Positions 24,394-32,323 of a stretch of 64,000 nt of DNA are shown one piece after another (position 1 is the stretch's first letter; every line of letters starts with the position of its first letter). The notes beneath the pieces are model-generated. The model made no database searches. It was not told where the DNA came from and worked only from the letters and a program-made list of their open reading frames with translations. The DNA comes from an uncultured Candidatus Babeliaceae bacterium. GTDB taxonomy: Bacteria > Babelota > Babeliae > Babelales > Babelaceae. A program made the translations under genes and the position numbers. The stretch is from positions 1,088,001-1,152,000 of the forward strand of contig OY969927.1 of the NCBI GenBank assembly GCA_963704655.1, given 5' to 3'.

Positions 24394-26200
24394 ATGACAC
24401 AAAGAACAAGACCAAATATTCGTAATATCGCTATTATCGCACACGTTGACCATGGTAAAACTACCCTTGTTGATAAATTGTTGCGTCAGTCTGGCACAAT
24501 CCAAGATACCAGCGCTGATCGCGTCATGGACTCAAATGCCCTTGAAAAGGAACGTGGGATTACTATTTTAGCTAAAAACACCGGCGTTAAGTATGAAGAT
24601 TACTTTATTAACATCGTAGATACCCCGGGCCATAGTGACTTTGGTGGTGAAGTTGAACGTACCTTGCAGATGGTTGAAGGCTTCTTATTGCTTGTTGACG
24701 CGGCTGAAGGGGTTCTTCCAGGAACACGTTTTGTTTTATATAAAGCGCTTGAGCTTAATTTAAGACCTATTGTTCTTATTAATAAAATCGACCGTAAAGA
24801 TGCTGATATTGCTCATACAGAGAGCCTTATTAATGATCTTTTCTTGGATCTTGCCCGTAATGATAGCCAATTAGATTTCCCTATTTTATATGGCTCTTCA
24901 CGTCAGGGTTTTGTAACCGATGACCCAAATGTAATCACAACAGATATGAAGCTGTTGTTTGATACTATTATTAAAACTATTCCAGCGCCAAAAGAAGAAG
25001 TTGATGGTCTTCAAATGCTTGTAACCAGCATGGACCACTCAGATTTTCTTGGGCAAATTGCTATTGGACGTGTTTTTAGTGGTAAAATGTCTGTTGGTGA
25101 ACAGGTTATCTTATGTAAAGATGATGTAGTAAGCAGACCGACAAAGATTACAAAAATTTATAACTTCTTAGGTTTACAGCGTACAGAAACACAAACTGCT
25201 GAGTTTGGTGACATTATTGCCGTAACCGGTTTTAATGAAAGTGAGCCTGCTACTATTGGTACCACGTTATGTAACGTTGGCAACCCACAGCCGCATTCAT
25301 ATGTTAAAATCGATGAACCGACTCTTATCCCTTTATTTATCTGTTAACGATTCTCCGTTCAGTGGTAAAGAGGGTAAATTGCTTACCTCACGTCAGATTA
25401 AAGACCGTTTGGAACGCGAACTCAAAACAAACGTTGCATTACGTGTTGAGCCTACTGATTCTGCAGAAACCTTTAAAATTTCTGGCCGTGGGCAGTTGCA
25501 TCTTGGCATTTTAATGGAAAACATGCGTCGCGAAGGTTTTGAAGTTCAAATTTCAGCACCTGAAGTTATTTATCGCACTATTAATGGTGTTAAATGTGAA
25601 CCGATTGAATACTTGGTTGTTGATGTTATGCAAGAACACCAAGGTATCGTTATGGAATCACTTGGTAAGAAAAAGGCTGAGATGAAAAATCTTGAGCTGT
25701 ATGATAACGGCCGTGTACGTATTGAATTTGAAGTTCCTTCACGTGGATTACTTGGTTTCAGAGGCCAGTTTTTAACTGATACACGTGGTTCTGGTATTGC
25801 TACTTTTAGCTTTGCTGGGTATCAACCATATAAAGGTGATATTAGCATGCGTACAAAAGGTGCCTTAGTTTCTATGGAAAATGGCCCGTCAACAGATTAT
25901 GCGCTTAATATGATTCAAGAACGTGGTGTTCTGTTTATTAAATCTGGTGACCCTATTTACGAAGGTATGATCATTGGTGAAAACAGCCGTGCTGATGATA
26001 TGGACGTTAACCCATGCAGACTTAAAAAATTAACCAACATGCGTGCGTCTGGTTCAGATGATACGGTTAAAATCGAGCCGCCACGTAAAATGGAACTCGA
26101 AACGTGTATGGAATGGATTATGCCTGACGAACTTATCGAGATTACTCCGTTATCCGTTCGTTTACGCAAAAAGATCTTACGCGCGACGTTACGTAAGTAA
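24394..26200 (+). CDS. typA: Translational GTPase TypA/BipA with an apparent +1 frameshift at about 25321-25330
   Basis: [33 protein letters not shown]; second frame [30 protein letters not shown]. Confidence 0.93.
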
Positions 26201-26395: not shown

Positions 26396-27187
26396 ATGAA
26401 AATTAATAAATTATTTATTCTATTTTTTTTCGCACTTACTTTTTCATCAAATCTCTTTTGTATGCAAAAAGAGAATAATAACCTTTTTTTAAAATTGCGT
26501 CAGAGAGAGACATTTGGAAAAATCCCTGAAGAAACCAAAGAGCATATAGCTAGATTTTTTGATAAAAAGTGTTCAGATAAAAAGTGTTCATTTGAAAGGG
26601 CTCTGAAGGATTATGATGATAAGCACACTGCAGTTGATGCATACAGTTTGTTTGTATTAAAAAAGGGTTGTTGCTTTGCCCTGTTAGAGCATGCAGTTGC
26701 CGCTAAGCGGGAGCAGATAATACATGATTTTTTAGACAAACAAAGTCTAGATACAACATGGTTAAGCGCTTTCGCTGCAATGTATATTCATTCTGTAGAT
26801 TTAACTAACGGTGATAATGCTTCTTTGTTTAAAAGAGTTGTAGTCGAGAGAAAGCCAGATCTTAATCTCTTGTATCCGATGCAAATGTTGCATTACCCAC
26901 AACGACTCAATCCTGAATTATATAACTATAAAACAACGCTCTTGCATGATGCTGCTGTATATAAAGACAAACATGTTGTTAAGCTTCTTCTAAGTTTGGG
27001 TGCAAATCCGAAAAATCTCGATGGTGAGGGTAAATCTCCGGCGGACTTACTTCGCCCTGAGGTGAAGAAAGAGGGACATATTAGTGCTAAAAGATTTAAG
27101 GATAATCTTGCATTATTGCAAGAGGCCAAAAGAAAACAAAGTGCGCGTTTGTTTGCAGCGGGAAAAAGAAGAAAGACAAACGAATAA
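26396..27187 (+). CDS. Exported ankyrin-repeat protein with basic C-terminal tail
   Basis: TTLLHDAA..VVKLLLSLGANP..DGEGKSPADL; tail KRKQSARLFAAGKRRKTNE. Confidence 0.85.
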   Translation: MKINKLFILFFFALTFSSNLFCMQKENNNLFLKLRQRETFGKIPEETKEHIARFFDKKCSDKKCSFERALKDYDDKHTAVDAYSLFVLKKGCCFALLEHAVAAKREQIIHDFLDKQSLDTTWLSAFAAMYIHSVDLTNGDNASLFKRVVVERKPDLNLLYPMQMLHYPQRLNPELYNYKTTLLHDAAVYKDKHVVKLLLSLGANPKNLDGEGKSPADLLRPEVKKEGHISAKRFKDNLALLQEAKRKQSARLFAAGKRRKTNE

Positions 27188-28084
27188 TACTACGAAATTT
27201 GATAATTATGAAAAATAATTTCTTTGTTTTATTTATGCTTTTGTTTTCATCAAATCTCTTTTGCATGCAAAATAAAAATAGTAATCTTTCTCTTGTTTTG
27301 CGCCAGAGAGAGACATTTGGAAAAATTCCTGAAGAAACTAAAAGGTTTTTAATTAATCTTTGTGAAACGGTTAGATTGCATGAGCGTTTTACGTGGCGAG
27401 ACAAATTTAATGATTTTTATGGAAAGCAACTTTGTTTTAAAGATTTAATAGAAAGTGTTAACCGAACTTACCGCCGTAATGCTTTCCCAGATTATTTATT
27501 AAAGCGCCAAGTAATTATACGTCAGTTTCTAGATACATATGGCTCAAATATAGAATGGATAAAAGCTTTTTTTACAGAGTATTTATTTGTTATGCATTGT
27601 ACTGCTGAAAACAGTAAAATTACGCAGAGATTTGATGATAAGGAAAAAGATTCGTATTTGCTAGAATTTGAAGAGATGAGTTCATTTTTAAAAAGGGTTG
27701 TGAGCGAAAGAAAATTGAGTGTTAATTTTTTATTTCGAGATTCGCCAGGTTATAATAATGACCACAGATCAACGCCGTTGCATGTACATTGCAGGCTAGC
27801 TCATAAATCTGGTGTTGAACTTCTTTTAGGTTTAGGAGCGGATGTAAAAATTCAGGATACAGATCATATGACCTCGGCTGATGCGCTGCGCAGGAAAATA
27901 AGGATCGAAAGGCAAATAGGGATCGAATCTGAACTAGATGCGATGTATGAAGAGATTCTAAAATTGTTGCAAGAGACTAAAAGAAAGCAAAATGCGGGTT
28001 TGTTTGCCGCGGGAAAAAGAAGAAAGACAAACGAATAATACTACGAAATTTGATAATTATGAAAAATAATTTCTTTGTTTTATT
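27158..28084. repeat. Identical 76 bp direct repeats at ankyrin gene junctions (27158-27233 and 28009-28084)
   Basis: GCGGGAAAAAGAAGAAAGACAAACGAATAATACTACGAAATTTGATAATTATGAAAAATAATTTCTTTGTTTTATT occurs twice. Confidence 0.95.
27208..28038 (+). CDS. Exported ankyrin-repeat protein
   Basis: STPLHV..VELLLGLGADVKIQD; same tail as the preceding paralog. Confidence 0.85.
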   Translation: MKNNFFVLFMLLFSSNLFCMQNKNSNLSLVLRQRETFGKIPEETKRFLINLCETVRLHERFTWRDKFNDFYGKQLCFKDLIESVNRTYRRNAFPDYLLKRQVIIRQFLDTYGSNIEWIKAFFTEYLFVMHCTAENSKITQRFDDKEKDSYLLEFEEMSSFLKRVVSERKLSVNFLFRDSPGYNNDHRSTPLHVHCRLAHKSGVELLLGLGADVKIQDTDHMTSADALRRKIRIERQIGIESELDAMYEEILKLLQETKRKQNAGLFAAGKRRKTNE

Positions 28085-28919
28085 GATGCTTTTGTTTGTT
28101 GCAGATGTTTTCTGTATGCAAAATGGTAAAGGCCATAAATCACTTACTCAATATTTACATGAGCGTGAGTATGGAAGTAGATTTACTCCGGATGATTGCA
28201 AAGAGACATTTGGAAAAATCCCTGAAGAAGAAAATGTTCGTATAGCTAGATTTTTTGAGACAAAATGTTCATTTGAAAAGTCGTTGAAGAATTATAATGA
28301 TAAGCGCGTTGAAGTTGATGCACACAGTTTGTTTGAGTTAAAGCGGATTTGCTGTTTTCAATTATTAGAGCATGCTAAGGCTCATTACCCTTATACTGCA
28401 AATCTAGATTATTTAACTAAGCGAGAATCGATGATACATGAGTTTTTGGATGAGCGCTGTGTAGATGATGCTGAATGGTTAAAGGTATTTGCTGTAATGT
28501 ATATTCAAACTCTTTACTATCCAGTAACAGATGTAAATGATGGAAATAGGACTTCTTTGTTTAAAGCAATTGCAATTAAGCGGAATCTAGATGTTAACTT
28601 TCTGTATTCGAAGCAGTATTTCTATCCACAATTGCGTAATGAAGAAACAACGCTCTTGCACCAGGCTGTTAAAGGTAGGGATAAATCTGTTGTTGAATTT
28701 CTTTTAAGTTTGGGAGCAAATCCAAAATTTCTTGATGGAAATTATCAATCTCCGGCTGAGATAGTTAGTGGTTATATTATGATGTTAAGTGATAAAAATC
28801 ATCACCGGACAACTTTGAAAAGCATTCTAAAATTGTTGCAAGAGGCTAAAAGAAAACAAAGTGCGGGTTTGTTTGCTGCAGGAAAAAGAAGAAAGATAGA
28901 GAATAATACAAAGTGGTAA
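28059..28919 (+). CDS. Exported ankyrin-repeat protein
   Basis: TTLLHQAV..VVEFLLSLGANP; tail KRKQSAGLFAAGKRRK. Confidence 0.85.
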   Translation: MKNNFFVLLMLLFVADVFCMQNGKGHKSLTQYLHEREYGSRFTPDDCKETFGKIPEEENVRIARFFETKCSFEKSLKNYNDKRVEVDAHSLFELKRICCFQLLEHAKAHYPYTANLDYLTKRESMIHEFLDERCVDDAEWLKVFAVMYIQTLYYPVTDVNDGNRTSLFKAIAIKRNLDVNFLYSKQYFYPQLRNEETTLLHQAVKGRDKSVVEFLLSLGANPKFLDGNYQSPAEIVSGYIMMLSDKNHHRTTLKSILKLLQEAKRKQSAGLFAAGKRRKIENNTKW

Positions 28920-29020
28920 AGCGCATAAATCGCATACCCAGTTTTGGCTTACTCAAAAAAATTCTTCGTGCTACATTACGTAAGTAGTGGATTAGATTAA
29001 ATAACTATAAAGGAGTAGTT

Positions 29021-29596
29021 ATGAATAAGTTTTTTAAATTAGTTGCTTTGCTGGGGGTTACACAGATTTTGAGTATGCAAGAAGGGTGGCAATTAGAAAG
29101 TCGCACCTTGCAAAAGCTTAATGAAATTTTTGAAGATCCGTGTACGCAAACCAGGTTGGAAAAGTTGTTACCTCTTATTAAGAGTAATCCAGGTTACATA
29201 GATATATTTTGGGGTGAATTAAGCAAAAGTTCAAGACGTAAAAATTTCCGAAAAACGCTTTTTGTGTCGTTAATGCTTGATTCAGCATTGCAGGGCCGGT
29301 TTGAGATTTTAGAAAAATTTACCAAGAAGGCTGGATTTAACGTGAATTTTTCATGTTTTAAGGCAGAGCAATTTAATGTGTTAACAACTCCAATTCATCT
29401 GGCAGTAGAGGAATTGGATGTTCCATTAATAGAGTTTTTACTCAAGCATAAAGCTGATATATCTAAACGTGCAGAGGGAAGCAATATAACACCATTAGAG
29501 TCATATGAGCGTTATGTTGGTTATTTAGAGCAATTGGGTCATCAGAAACCTAAAAATTATAAAGATATGATTAAACTTTTAACGCCAGGGCAATAA
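29021..29596 (+). CDS. Exported ankyrin-repeat protein, second family
   Basis: AGGAG RBS; TPIHLAV..LIEFLLKHKADI..ITPL. Confidence 0.85.
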   Translation: MNKFFKLVALLGVTQILSMQEGWQLESRTLQKLNEIFEDPCTQTRLEKLLPLIKSNPGYIDIFWGELSKSSRRKNFRKTLFVSLMLDSALQGRFEILEKFTKKAGFNVNFSCFKAEQFNVLTTPIHLAVEELDVPLIEFLLKHKADISKRAEGSNITPLESYERYVGYLEQLGHQKPKNYKDMIKLLTPGQ

Positions 29597-29631
29597 TAAC
29601 ATTTTGTATCATGATGATAGTAGGGGGATTC

Positions 29632-30147
29632 ATGAGTTATTCTTCAGTGCATCAACACAATAATTTTTGGAGCAGCGAATTAATGCGTGAAAAGTATCAC
29701 GTATTAAAAGTTTCTTACGATATTTTTATTGAAGTAGTTCAAAAAATTGATGATCTTGGGGATCAGGAAATGCCGCTATCCTTAAAACGCGAGCTTTGTA
29801 AAAAATGGGAAAACTTATATAGTTCGATAAATAATATTTTAGATTTTTATATGCAGTATAAACTGCGTAAAGGATTGTCCTGCTTTTCAAATGGAAGGTA
29901 TGTACCTCAAATATTAAAGGCGTATGAGGTTAAGATAATACGTAAAAACGATTATCGATTATTAAAATGTAGCATAGACGAATTGCACAACTCATTTTTT
30001 AGAGATACACGATATATGTTTTTTAATTACAATGAAAAATATGTAAACTATCTGTTAGAAAATAAAGGTGATCTTGCCATATTTGGCCAAAAAATGCTCA
30101 ATAAATTTAGTCAATTTAAAGAATATAGTAGGTTTAAAAATATATAA
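29632..30147 (+). CDS. Hypothetical protein, possibly degenerate HI0074/HEPN-like
   Basis: GGGGG RBS; LCKKWENLYSSINNILDFY..QILKAYEVKII helical pattern. Confidence 0.5.
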   Translation: MSYSSVHQHNNFWSSELMREKYHVLKVSYDIFIEVVQKIDDLGDQEMPLSLKRELCKKWENLYSSINNILDFYMQYKLRKGLSCFSNGRYVPQILKAYEVKIIRKNDYRLLKCSIDELHNSFFRDTRYMFFNYNEKYVNYLLENKGDLAIFGQKMLNKFSQFKEYSRFKNI

Positions 30148-30749
30148 TGATTATGAAAAATAGTTACTTTATTTTACTCATGTTTTTTTTGTATACAAAA
30201 ATTTTTGGTATGCAGAGTGTCTCGAAATTAGAGCCTAGTGACGTAATTAAGCTTAATAAACGTTATAATCGAATATATAGAGACACTCATCAGCCTGAGC
30301 AGGTAAAGCTTACAAGTTTAATGACTCTTATTGAAGAATCTCCATTATACATAGATGAACTTTTGCATAAATTAAATAATGTTCAAAAACAAAAAGATCT
30401 ACAAAAAAAACTTTTTGTGATGGTAATGCTGAATACAAGGTTAACGCAACAAGACAAACTGCAAGTTTTAGAAAGATTTACCAAACAAAGAGACTTTACC
30501 GTAAATTTTTCATGCAAAAAGTCACAAAATTTTGAATTTTTAATAACACCAGTTCATCTTGCAGTGGAAGAATTAGATGGCCCATTAATAACATTTTTAC
30601 GTGATCATAATGCTGATTTAACTGTGCAAATAGACGGCAATACCCCATTAGCGGCATATGAACAATATGTTGTTTATTTAAATAGACTTGGTCATAAAAA
30701 ACCTGAAAATTATGAAGATATGATTAACCTTTTAACGCCAGGGAAATAA
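30147..30749 (+). CDS. Exported ankyrin-repeat protein, paralog of 29021..29596
   Basis: TPVHLAVEELD..GNTPL; shared tail KP.NY.DMI.LLTPG. Confidence 0.85.
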   Translation: MIMKNSYFILLMFFLYTKIFGMQSVSKLEPSDVIKLNKRYNRIYRDTHQPEQVKLTSLMTLIEESPLYIDELLHKLNNVQKQKDLQKKLFVMVMLNTRLTQQDKLQVLERFTKQRDFTVNFSCKKSQNFEFLITPVHLAVEELDGPLITFLRDHNADLTVQIDGNTPLAAYEQYVVYLNRLGHKKPENYEDMINLLTPGK

Positions 30750-30789
30750 TAACATTTGGCATCATGATAGTAGCAGGGGGATTCATGTC

Positions 30790-30822
30790 GCATACAACGG
30801 TTACGATTATCATGGGTGGCAG
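30790..30822 (+). repeat. Duplicated fragment of the truA 5' end
   Basis: ACGGTTACGATTATCATGGGTGGCAG (30797-30822) is identical to 31575-31600. Confidence 0.9.
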
Positions 30823-30855
30823 AAAAGTATTTGAATAAAAACTTAGGGACAAAGC

Positions 30856-31557
30856 ATGAAAAAAAATTATTTTATTTTGTTAATATTTTTATACTTGAGC
30901 GACATTTTAGGTATGCAAAGAGAGAAAAATTTATTTAATATGTTGCGGAAATTTCAAGAGGGTGATTATTCCTATCACTCTGAAATTAAAGGTATTGGGA
31001 GAAATGCTCGGTCACTTTCAACTTTGAATTTCTGGCTTACTGAGGAAGATGAGCACGTTGAAGGCTTAACTGAAGAATATCGATGTAGACTTGATGGAAG
31101 ATGTGGTCAATTAGCTGATTCTATTGTTTCAAATCCAGCTTGTTTGGGAAGTTTTTTCAATAAATTGCATTCTTTTAAAAATGAAAAAATTATTTGGGGA
31201 ATGATATTTATAAAATTATCACAGGACTATCGTTACCAACGTAATAAAGAAATATTAGACATGATGGTTAAGAAATACCAGTTCGATGTAAATTTTATTG
31301 ATCAGTCTTGGTCTCTTGTCAATTATAGAAACACGCCTTTACATAAATCTGTATCTAATTACGATACTACTTTTACCAAAATGTTATTGGATTGGGGTGC
31401 GGATGTTACCATGGTAGATACAAAAGGCCGTACACCAAGGGAGGCTTTTATAAGCAGCTGTTCATTTAGGCGCGAGCATGCAAAAGGAGTTTTAGATCTA
31501 TTAGATATCGCTGATCAAGAAAAAATAATTGAGGATATTAGATTTGTATTACTATAA
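30856..31557 (+). CDS. Exported ankyrin-repeat protein
   Basis: NTPLHKSV..TKMLLDWGADVTMVDTKGRTP. Confidence 0.85.
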   Translation: MKKNYFILLIFLYLSDILGMQREKNLFNMLRKFQEGDYSYHSEIKGIGRNARSLSTLNFWLTEEDEHVEGLTEEYRCRLDGRCGQLADSIVSNPACLGSFFNKLHSFKNEKIIWGMIFIKLSQDYRYQRNKEILDMMVKKYQFDVNFIDQSWSLVNYRNTPLHKSVSNYDTTFTKMLLDWGADVTMVDTKGRTPREAFISSCSFRREHAKGVLDLLDIADQEKIIEDIRFVLL

Positions 31558-32323
31558 AATTCTTATTGCATATGACGGTTACGATTATCATGGGTGGCAG
31601 TGGCAGCCGACACAAAAGGCTGTTGCCAACAAGCTCGAGCATGCTTTTAAAAAGGCTTTTCATCAAGAAGTAATTTCTCTTGTGGGTGCTTCGCGCACAG
31701 ACACGGGTGTGCATGCGTGGGGACAAGTCGCTCGCCTTAAATCAGCTTTTTATCTTGAGCCAGATGTCCTTAAGCGTGCATGGCAGGGTACATTGCCCCA
31801 TACGATTTTATTGCGCAGTGTGCAGGAGATGCCGGGTGATTTTGATCTGCATGAAGGCGTTGAACATAAAACCTATGATTATTATATTAGCAGGGTACGC
31901 GTATTGCCATTTTTTGCACGCTATTGCATAGCATATTATGATCATTTTGATATCGATATATTACAAAAAAATTTACAGGTATTTTTAGGTACGCATGATT
32001 TCAGGTCTTTCTGTACCGGTGACGATAAAGAAAACACCGTAAGAACGGTTGAATCGATATCTGTAACTTATCTGCGTCGATTTAATGTCTATCGCATTCG
32101 AGTAAAAGGGCCCGGTTTTTTGCGCTACATGATCCGCAGAATTGTCGGCGCCGCTTTACAGACTATGTCTTGGCAGATTGAAAAAAAACTTGATAATGCG
32201 CAAGAATATCTGAATACTATTTTAGAAGAAAAAAATCCAAAGCAACATCTCAAGACTGCGCCAGCGCAGGGGTTGATGTTGCGTTCAATAACGTATGGAA
32301 AAAATAATGATAAACTCTCGTAA
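31544..32323 (+). CDS. truA: tRNA pseudouridine(38-40) synthase
   Basis: IAYDG.DYHGWQ, GASRTDTGVHA, GTHDFRSF, GFLRYMIR, TAPAQGL; TTG start after GAGGA. Confidence 0.95.
   Translation: MYYYKILIAYDGYDYHGWQWQPTQKAVANKLEHAFKKAFHQEVISLVGASRTDTGVHAWGQVARLKSAFYLEPDVLKRAWQGTLPHTILLRSVQEMPGDFDLHEGVEHKTYDYYISRVRVLPFFARYCIAYYDHFDIDILQKNLQVFLGTHDFRSFCTGDDKENTVRTVESISVTYLRRFNVYRIRVKGPGFLRYMIRRIVGAALQTMSWQIEKKLDNAQEYLNTILEEKNPKQHLKTAPAQGLMLRSITYGKNNDKLS

Follow-up and report, generated by a model that had tools for sequence, protein, structure and literature searches.

The closest described relatives of the genes considered here are the signal-peptide ankyrin proteins of two other Dependentiae, Babela massiliensis and Chromulinavorax destructans. 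According to the genome report on B. massiliensis, 79 of its 126 ankyrin proteins carry signal peptides and the sole secretion system found was of type II (PMC4378268), and for C. destructans signal peptides are reported in 78% of 98 ankyrin proteins (PMC6561590). Given these figures, exported ankyrin proteins are a kind of gene to be expected in this lineage. As far as the two reports describe them, the presumed role of these proteins is secreted host interaction, and their sole secretion route is a type II-like system. In this work we analysed a stretch of 64,000 nucleotides (the window), positions 1,088,001-1,152,000 of the single-contig genome (1,298,077 bp, ~38% G+C, 96% complete) of an uncultured Candidatus Babeliaceae bacterium, in which seven genes on one strand, P1 to P7, stand between typA (24394-26200) and truA (31529-32323) in the list of open reading frames (ORFs). 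Their leader and ankyrin architecture is that of the B. massiliensis and C. destructans proteins, which come from the same phylum. Unlike those proteins, the family described here is found in one genus, has mostly degenerate repeats and carries a conserved motif behind the leader, of which the main text of the two reports makes no mention; there are also fewer ankyrin genes, with 13 Ank_2 matches in this genome as opposed to the 98 to 126 ankyrin proteins given for the other two. The family is thus a lineage-restricted addition to the known signal-peptide ankyrin proteins of the Dependentiae, and its post-leader motif is undescribed.

The explanation that we favour, with a probability of about one half, is that these genes encode a family of exported ankyrin effectors, expanded in tandem, whose N-terminal helix would be exposed and serve for docking. 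A Sec-type leader would export each protein and a secretin-based, type II-like pathway would most likely carry it further. The ankyrin solenoid would bind one host protein and the N-terminal helix would dock on a second host factor, DDB1 being one candidate. As two host factors would be bound in this way, the protein could act as an adaptor or bridging effector, and in P1-P3 a tail with the shape of a bipartite nuclear localization signal (NLS) could send it to the host nucleus.

Ankyrin proteins that address cullin ligases are known from amoeba parasites and viruses, and include Legionella AnkB, the poxvirus ANK/F-box proteins (Cul1), the poxvirus ANK/BC proteins (Cul2) as well as, among cellular proteins, the ASB ankyrin-SOCS-box proteins (Cul5). 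As presented in PMC6232478, they combine an ankyrin substrate-binding body with a short helical element, in which they resemble the present family. However, the poxvirus and ASB boxes are C-terminal, and the F-box and BC-box consensus sequences do not match the motif described here. An earlier note on this DNA had compared the motif to yet another element, the H-box, a helix by which host receptors (DCAFs) and viral proteins bind DDB1 of the CUL4 ligases. The nearest bacterial case is the Anaplasma phagocytophilum effector AFAP, for which co-precipitation of DDB1 and DCAF1 and entry into the nucleus or nucleolus are reported (PMC11747512). AFAP differs from the present family in being a type IV secretion substrate, the parts of that paper considered here define no H-box or other motif for it, and the likeness is one of description only.

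Conserved motif behind the leader

The four peptides pointed out in the earlier note are present, directly behind a signal-peptide-like leader ending in [CGS]-M-Q, in four genes of the + strand whose ATG starts lie at 26396, 27208, 28059 and 30856. They are NLFLKLRQRETFG in P1 (26480-26518), NLSLVLRQRETFG in P2 (27283-27321), the short variant SLTQYLHEREYG in P3 (28140-28175) and NLFNMLRKFQEG in P7 (30928-30963), where Phe replaces Arg at position 9. The family motif reads N-φ-x-x-φ-L-[RK]-x-R-[EQ]-x(1-2)-G, φ being a hydrophobic residue, with the consensus [N/S]-[L/I]-x-x-x-L-[R/K/H]-x-R-[E/Q]-x(1-2)-G. Twelve proteins of the genus carry it, and in all of them it begins 2-16 residues past the leader, leader and motif being conserved together. 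In the alignment of carriers the Leu is invariant (12 of 12, and also in the metagenomic protein P0006) and the Arg at +3 is nearly so (11 of 12, with the Phe of P7 as the exception). Position 7 is Arg, Lys or His in 11 of the 12 (Gln in L127), and position 8 is basic in three only. A Gly, a loop and a second helix follow in every carrier. The P3 motif is homologous to that of P1, but an 11-residue insertion sets it apart from the ETFGKIPEE block, which is common to P1-P3 and invariant in their protein alignment (P1 copy at 26507-26533, P3 copy at 28203-28229, both on the + strand).

The 10-residue core of the motif is 47% identical over 55 pairs from 11 carriers, as opposed to 23% for the rest of the proteins. 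Among 1285 ORFs, the pattern [NS][LI]xxxL[RKH]x[RF][EQ]x(1,2)G occurs in six, against 0.105 expected from 200 shuffles (maximum 2), and all six belong to the family, each with a leader, an ankyrin body and the motif at residues 25-40. Since the pattern was derived from its own matches this enrichment is partly circular, and the informative points are that there are zero matches outside the family and that the place at residues 25-40 is fixed. In contrast, the generic [hydrophobic]xxLxxRxxG shape on which the earlier note had relied is not enriched, with 38 matches in the same 1285 ORFs versus 29.4 +/- 5.9 in shuffles. The mature protein appears to begin with an amphipathic helix, in which Asn or Ser forms the N-cap, L2, φ5 and L6 make up one face with Arg9 in its middle, and Gly acts as the stop.

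Leader, secretion and basic tail

All genes of the array except P5 begin with a signal-peptide-like leader ending in [C/G/S]-M-Q (P1-P4, P6 and P7). Read from the translations, the leaders show a basic N-region, a hydrophobic core and a small residue before M-Q; the putative leader of P1 (26396-26467, +) has Lys in the N-region, about 15 hydrophobic residues and a C-M-Q end. From these features the leader is predicted to be of the Sec type, and it may serve as an uncleaved membrane anchor. A lipobox was considered and rejected by eye, as Phe or Glu stands in front of the Cys that precedes M-Q, and paralogs have Gly or Ser in place of this Cys. Leader-like N-termini that end in a small residue and M-Q (…AMQ, …GMQ, …SMQ, …TMQ) are seen in about 20 unrelated ORFs across the genome, examples from the window being the six array genes with a leader and the ORF at 63493-63870 (-); this looks like an unusual cleavage region typical of the lineage.

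Three secretion markers were searched genome-wide: secretin gave two matches, and VirB4 and FHIPEP gave none. A type II-like route would be the most likely one for these proteins. The marker result agrees with the single type II system published for B. massiliensis (PMC4378268). The two secretin genes, of ~800 amino acids (aa) each, lie close together at G000:C1:1068670-1073730, 15-20 kb before the window.

P1-P3 end in a basic tail, KR-x10-KRRK, within their last 20-25 residues (P1, 27128-27175; P2, 27979-28026; P3, 28848-28895; all +). A classical bipartite NLS consists of two basic clusters 10-12 residues apart, and the tail has this form, so that the NLS-like tail mentioned in the earlier note is indeed there in these three proteins. 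The strict pattern KR-x(10-12)-K[KR][KR]K occurs four times in the 1285 ORFs, three of them in P1-P3, against 0.34 in shuffles, although the three copies are paralogs and so do not count as independent.

Ankyrin-type body

The paralogs have an ankyrin-type body, as the earlier note had proposed; it was recovered by Foldseek for P1 and by model matches for P7. The Pfam Ank family matches P1 at a borderline 21.2 bits (cut-off 21.1) over residues 181-206, whereas P2, P3, P4 and P7 have one sub-threshold ankyrin match each and P6 has none. The AlphaFold2 model of P1 is all-helical, with a mean predicted local distance difference test (pLDDT) of 70.5, and its best Foldseek matches are ankyrin domains (best E 2.7e-3). 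Among look-alikes of P1 in the ESM Atlas, with ankyrin families skipped, only clusters named 'ankyrin repeat protein' appeared, at 0.92-0.93. For P7, the AlphaFold2 model made from a 15-sequence alignment has a mean pLDDT of 84.0 and a predicted template modelling score of 0.72. Over residues 45-230 it matches solved ankyrin domains with Z of 7.9-10.1, a range that can be generic for helical repeats as it lies below about 13, and with a root-mean-square deviation of 2.1-5.1 Å over 94-164 aligned residues; essentially every one among the matches listed is an ankyrin domain or a designed ankyrin protein. The body is, according to these models, an ankyrin-type solenoid of mostly degenerate repeats with one canonical repeat at the end. 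Since the ankyrin matches of P7 span residues 45-230 and the P1 model matches the same families, the 'variable domain' of the earlier note is not separate and represents the degenerate N-terminal part of the solenoid.

In the P7 model the motif forms a helix at residues 26-34, in a block with pLDDT of about 58-60, and residues 19-42 of P1 are coil with pLDDT below 50. None of the ankyrin alignments of P7 includes the motif helix, their aligned ranges beginning at residue 35-45 or later. The earlier note had taken burial of the helix in the protein's own fold as an argument against docking; no such burial is seen in the AlphaFold models, where the motif, modelled with low confidence, lies apart from the residues aligned to ankyrins, which says little in either direction.

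Distribution of the family

Apart from the array, this genome (G000) has two unlinked carriers of the motif, L001:3001-3999 (332 aa) and L035:813-1649(-) (278 aa), both with a leader and an ankyrin-type body. Syntenic genes in the order typA-X-truA carry the motif in four other genomes of the genus (L003, L004, L005 and L012), and one of these, G001, has two further paralogs with it, L034:1011-2063 and L127:942-1967. Thus, the 12 carriers are spread over five of the six genomes of the genus (G000 and four of the five others), and the one metagenomic protein, P0006, comes in addition.

A profile of leader plus motif gave full matches in the genus only when run on 41 genomes of the family, with matches to the leader part alone elsewhere. 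With a motif-only profile, the 261 genomes of the phylum yielded matches at E 1e-5 or better in G000 (six), G001 (three) and G002, G003 and G005 (one each), and no strong match in G004 (88% complete). Moreover, when the N-terminal halves of P1-P3 were made into a HMMER profile and run on 1.84 billion representatives, P1-P3 were the only matches, and P1 and P7 as queries of a word index gave three proteins each. The family is rare, lineage-specific and confined to one Babeliaceae genus; two weak matches from outside the genus, L031 and L121, are considered below with the structural role of the motif.

Organization of the array

The array begins with three long paralogs on the + strand: P1 (26396-27187, 263 aa), with leader, motif, ankyrin-type solenoid and basic tail, and P2 (27208-28038, 276 aa from ATG, or 279 aa from a TTG at 27199) and P3 (28059-28919, 286 aa from ATG, or 289 aa from a TTG at 28050), which share its architecture. 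They are followed on the same strand by P4 (29021-29596), a short paralog of 191 aa with a leader, one ankyrin repeat and a decayed motif, and, after P5, by a second short paralog, P6 (30147-30749, 200 aa), with a leader and a decayed motif that retains L-x-x-R only. The last gene, P7 (30856-31557, +, 233 aa), has leader, motif and ankyrin-type solenoid and is the ortholog of the single typA-truA gene of relatives. The C-terminal ...LLTP end of P4 is also seen in two motif-bearing genes of relatives, L005:1498-2187(-) and L012:1495-2052(-).

There are one or two genes between typA and truA in relatives (L003, L004, L005, L012 and L036-L038) as opposed to seven here, which indicates a recent expansion at this locus. 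Two junctions, P1/P2 (27128-27220) and P2/P3 (27979-28071), are near-identical, each consisting of the basic tail, an 11-nt spacer TACTACGAAAT, identical at both, and the beginning of the following gene. P2 and P3 are 98% identical over their first 45 nt, and the 27-nt ETFGKIPEE block is 93-97% identical in DNA among P1-P3, whereas their middles and flanks range from 41 to 83%. This mosaic is typical of tandem duplication with gene conversion.

Role of the helix and alternative explanations

Several observations weigh against an exposed docking helix under selection. In the three closest orthologs the motif keeps 5/13, 5/13 and 8/13 identities, as opposed to 52, 48 and 62% overall, and P4 and P6 give no motif match, having lost the motif and kept the leader. 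Since the ETFGKIPEE block is near-identical in DNA, as are the starts of P2 and P3, the likeness within the genome is partly due to gene conversion and not to selection. With alignments of 6 and 15 sequences, the low pLDDT of the motif may reflect their lack of depth instead of flexibility, and a protein exported by a Sec or type II route would still need a way across a host membrane. Finally, a purely structural role is possible, since in L031 the motif sits at the place of an ankyrin helix 1.

This structural role is the alternative that survives best, although we regard it as rather unlikely. The motif would be helix 1 of a degenerate N-terminal ankyrin cap, which packs on the solenoid or lines its groove without docking on anything. 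The argument draws on Pfam register and on position and starts from the two weak matches from outside the genus. In L031:1087-2190 (E 2.5e-4 per genome), a leader-bearing protein of 367 aa from another genus, the motif at residues 142-153 is directly N-terminal to six canonical ankyrin repeats. On a fragment of this protein (residues 140-250) the Pfam Ank_2 match begins at residue 160 with profile position 12, and extrapolation of this register puts the Leu of ankyrin helix 1 (profile position 1) at ~147-149, which corresponds to the invariant Leu of the motif. In the second protein, L121 (E 6e-4), the weak match is followed by an ...AGAD stretch. The Gly, loop and second helix behind the motif in all carriers point in the same direction, as does the ankyrin-like character of the entire mature body. 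By eye, residues ~38-52 of L031 also have the look of an F-box start (L-P-x-E-L...I), with no Pfam F-box match at E up to 10.

However, as ~0.07 and ~0.16 chance matches are expected at these E-values over the 261 genomes, homology of L031 and L121 to the family is no more than likely. In P1, P7 and the L004 ortholog, the N-terminal 76-81 residues give no Pfam ankyrin match at E up to 10, and no ankyrin structure aligns the motif helix of P7. In addition, the motif has Arg and Glu at places where canonical repeats, going by the ankyrin consensus, hold small packing residues. Judging by the register, the first helix of an N-terminal ankyrin cap is probably the source of the motif helix. Its conserved charged residues R7, R9 and E10 would fit a binding surface better than core packing. 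An exposed docking helix is also consistent with the persistence of the helix in paralogs that otherwise share ~20% identity, and with its place outside the confidently folded body in the models.

The proposal of the earlier note, in which the helix would dock in the BPA-BPC cleft of host DDB1 and the proteins, as bacterial mimics of DCAFs, would feed ankyrin-bound targets to CUL4 ligases, appears doubtful. The DDB1-binding helix is 13 residues long. In one account, of which we draw on the parts dealing with the helix, the cleft selects a helix with Leu or Val at position 7 and, less stringently, Arg at 10, Leu, Ile or Val at 12 and Gly as a helix breaker at 13 (PMC9975947). Another, whose numbering is one lower, describes large polar residues (Asn, Gln) at positions 1 and 10, hydrophobic residues at 2, 3, 5, 6 and 11 and basic residues at 7-9 (PMC11112733). 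To the extent of these descriptions, the family resembles the known binders (DCAFs, HBx, SV5-V, UL145 of human cytomegalovirus and E27 of rat cytomegalovirus) in its predicted short helix with a polar position 1, hydrophobic positions 2, 3, 5 and 6, a basic stretch at 7-9 with Arg9, a polar position 10 and, in register in half of the carriers, a terminal Gly.

We scored this likeness at 11 positions, built on the authors' verbal descriptions alone and not on their alignments. The family consensus fits at Asn1, φ2, φ3, φ5, Leu6, basic 7, Arg9, polar 10 and Gly12, and the carriers score 7 (P1, P2, L127), 8 (L001, L012, L034), 9 (P3, P7, L035, L003, L004) or 10 (L005). The Leu and the Arg at +3, the two most conserved residues of the family, correspond to the two residues of DCAF1 whose mutation is reported to abolish DDB1 binding (PMC3928422), and UL145 likewise has its H-box close to the N terminus, in residues 25-36 (PMC9975947). 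An ankyrin body joined to a short cullin-adaptor box would be a known design, as the F-box and BC-box proteins illustrate (PMC6232478), and the NLS-shaped tail of P1-P3 would suit the proposal.

Against this, not one of the 12 carriers has Leu, Ile or Val before the Gly (Tyr in P3, Met in L035 and Thr, Gln or Glu in the others), and the Gly is in the H-box register in six of them (P3, P7, L003, L004, L005 and L035), as well as in P0006, but one residue later in the other six. Unlike the known binders, the family is bacterial, appears to be Sec-exported and has neither WD40 repeats nor another second contact. The signature is also unspecific: of the 374,898 twelve-mers of the proteome, 3957 score at least 7, 559 at least 8 and 39 score 9, three of these last being family members, whereas in shuffled proteomes the numbers are 621 for scores of at least 8 and 59 for scores of at least 9. 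The score of P1 and P2 (7/11) is attained by ~1% of the proteome's twelve-mers. Thus, the H-box signature does not separate the members from the background and is too weak to be diagnostic; of the likeness noted earlier, the agreement at the family-conserved positions stands, and the hydrophobic residue before the Gly and the specificity do not.

A profile of the motif run against PDB chains of 20 or more residues retrieved no DCAF, DDB2 or HBx, and none of the 11 sequences obtained at E up to 10 (best 0.1, an unrelated protein) is related to DDB1 binders. The plasticity of the DDB1 cleft, in the words of one report, 'impedes sequence-based prediction' (PMC9975947), and no bacterial H-box protein was found in the parts of the literature that our search covered, the one case that touches DDB1 being AFAP, for which its report, in those parts, defines no motif. 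In its full form the proposal would have DCAF mimicry occur for the first time in bacteria: the proteins would be ankyrin adaptors, exported by Sec and type II, with an H-box that occupies protist DDB1 and redirects CUL4 to new substrates, aided in P1-P3 by nuclear import, and we hold this scenario to be improbable to the same degree.

Two other cullin-adaptor boxes were compared with their published consensus (PMC6232478) and rejected. As an F-box, the sequence I-P-E-E...I-A-R-F-F lacks the middle φ of φ-P-x2-φ-x3-φ in P1-P3. No Pfam F-box family matched the array proteins at E up to 1 or their N-terminal pieces at E up to 10; genome-wide, PF12937 had no match and PF00646 two sub-threshold ones, outside the array. 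As a BC box, [TSP]-L-x3-[CSA]-x3-φ, the motif fails in all 12 carriers, which have Leu at position 6 and Glu or Gln at position 10.

It is very unlikely that the motif is a sorting element, that is, a second-step export, host-translocation or processing signal behind the Sec leader that follows the logic of the PEXEL or RxLR signals of eukaryotic parasites. The fixed place 2-16 residues behind the leader and the joint conservation of the two would agree with such a signal, and the sole secretion pathway detected would need some means of substrate selection. However, the motif is present in one paralogous ankyrin family only and is missing from every other ORF of the genome that has a leader. 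In L031 and L121, 100-140 residues separate it from the leader, and P4 and P6 keep the leader without it. Moreover, the consensus forms of the signals in question are RxLxE/Q/D and RxLR, and the motif does not fit them by eye.

Least probable of all is that the shared N-terminus is a functionless relic of recent duplication and gene conversion, for although the duplicated junctions with their identical spacer, the near-identical 5' ends of P2 and P3, the ETFGKIPEE DNA and the close orthologs, which keep the motif no better than the rest, would all agree with it, the motif persists in the unlinked paralogs L001, L035, L034 and L127 at 16-24% overall identity, across four further genomes and in the metagenomic protein P0006, which conversion within a single array cannot explain.

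Neighbouring genes and the organism

P5 (29611-30147, +, 178 aa) is wedged into the array and has neither leader nor ankyrin match nor Pfam family in its translation and in the Pfam search. It starts 15 nt past the stop of P4, and its own stop overlaps the start of P6. Upstream of the array, typA/bipA is broken into two ORFs that overlap (24394-25347 and 25235-26200), the break lying near 25325-25335, where there is one extra base just past the ...IDEPTL codons in comparison with the intact gene of a relative (599-601 aa); either the gene is frameshifted or the assembly is in error here. A 102-aa ORF of one relative, L004:1107-1415 (+), whose N-terminus looks GIY-YIG-like by eye, is located between typA and the ankyrin gene. 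The closest named records to TruA come from metagenome-assembled genomes of Candidatus Babeliaceae (83% identity) and Candidatus Dependentiae (66%). The organism is a protist parasite of the Dependentiae/Babeliaceae type, a group that lives inside the cells of its protist hosts.

Biological significance

The Dependentiae devote many genes to exported ankyrin proteins, none of which has a known partner or mechanism. If the helix of the present family were merely an ankyrin cap, the family would be an ordinary lineage-specific expansion. As a conserved and probably exposed stretch of 12 residues, the helix offers an experimental handle, both as a pull-down peptide and through point mutants at the Leu and the Arg at +3, and DDB1 as the partner would be directly testable by published peptide-displacement assays. 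If DDB1 were indeed bound, bacteria would for the first time be seen to use a docking mode that until now is known only from host receptors and viruses, and the cullin-RING ligase 4 would join the cullin ligases hijacked by ankyrin effectors, Cul1 through the F-box and Cul2 and Cul5 through the BC box.

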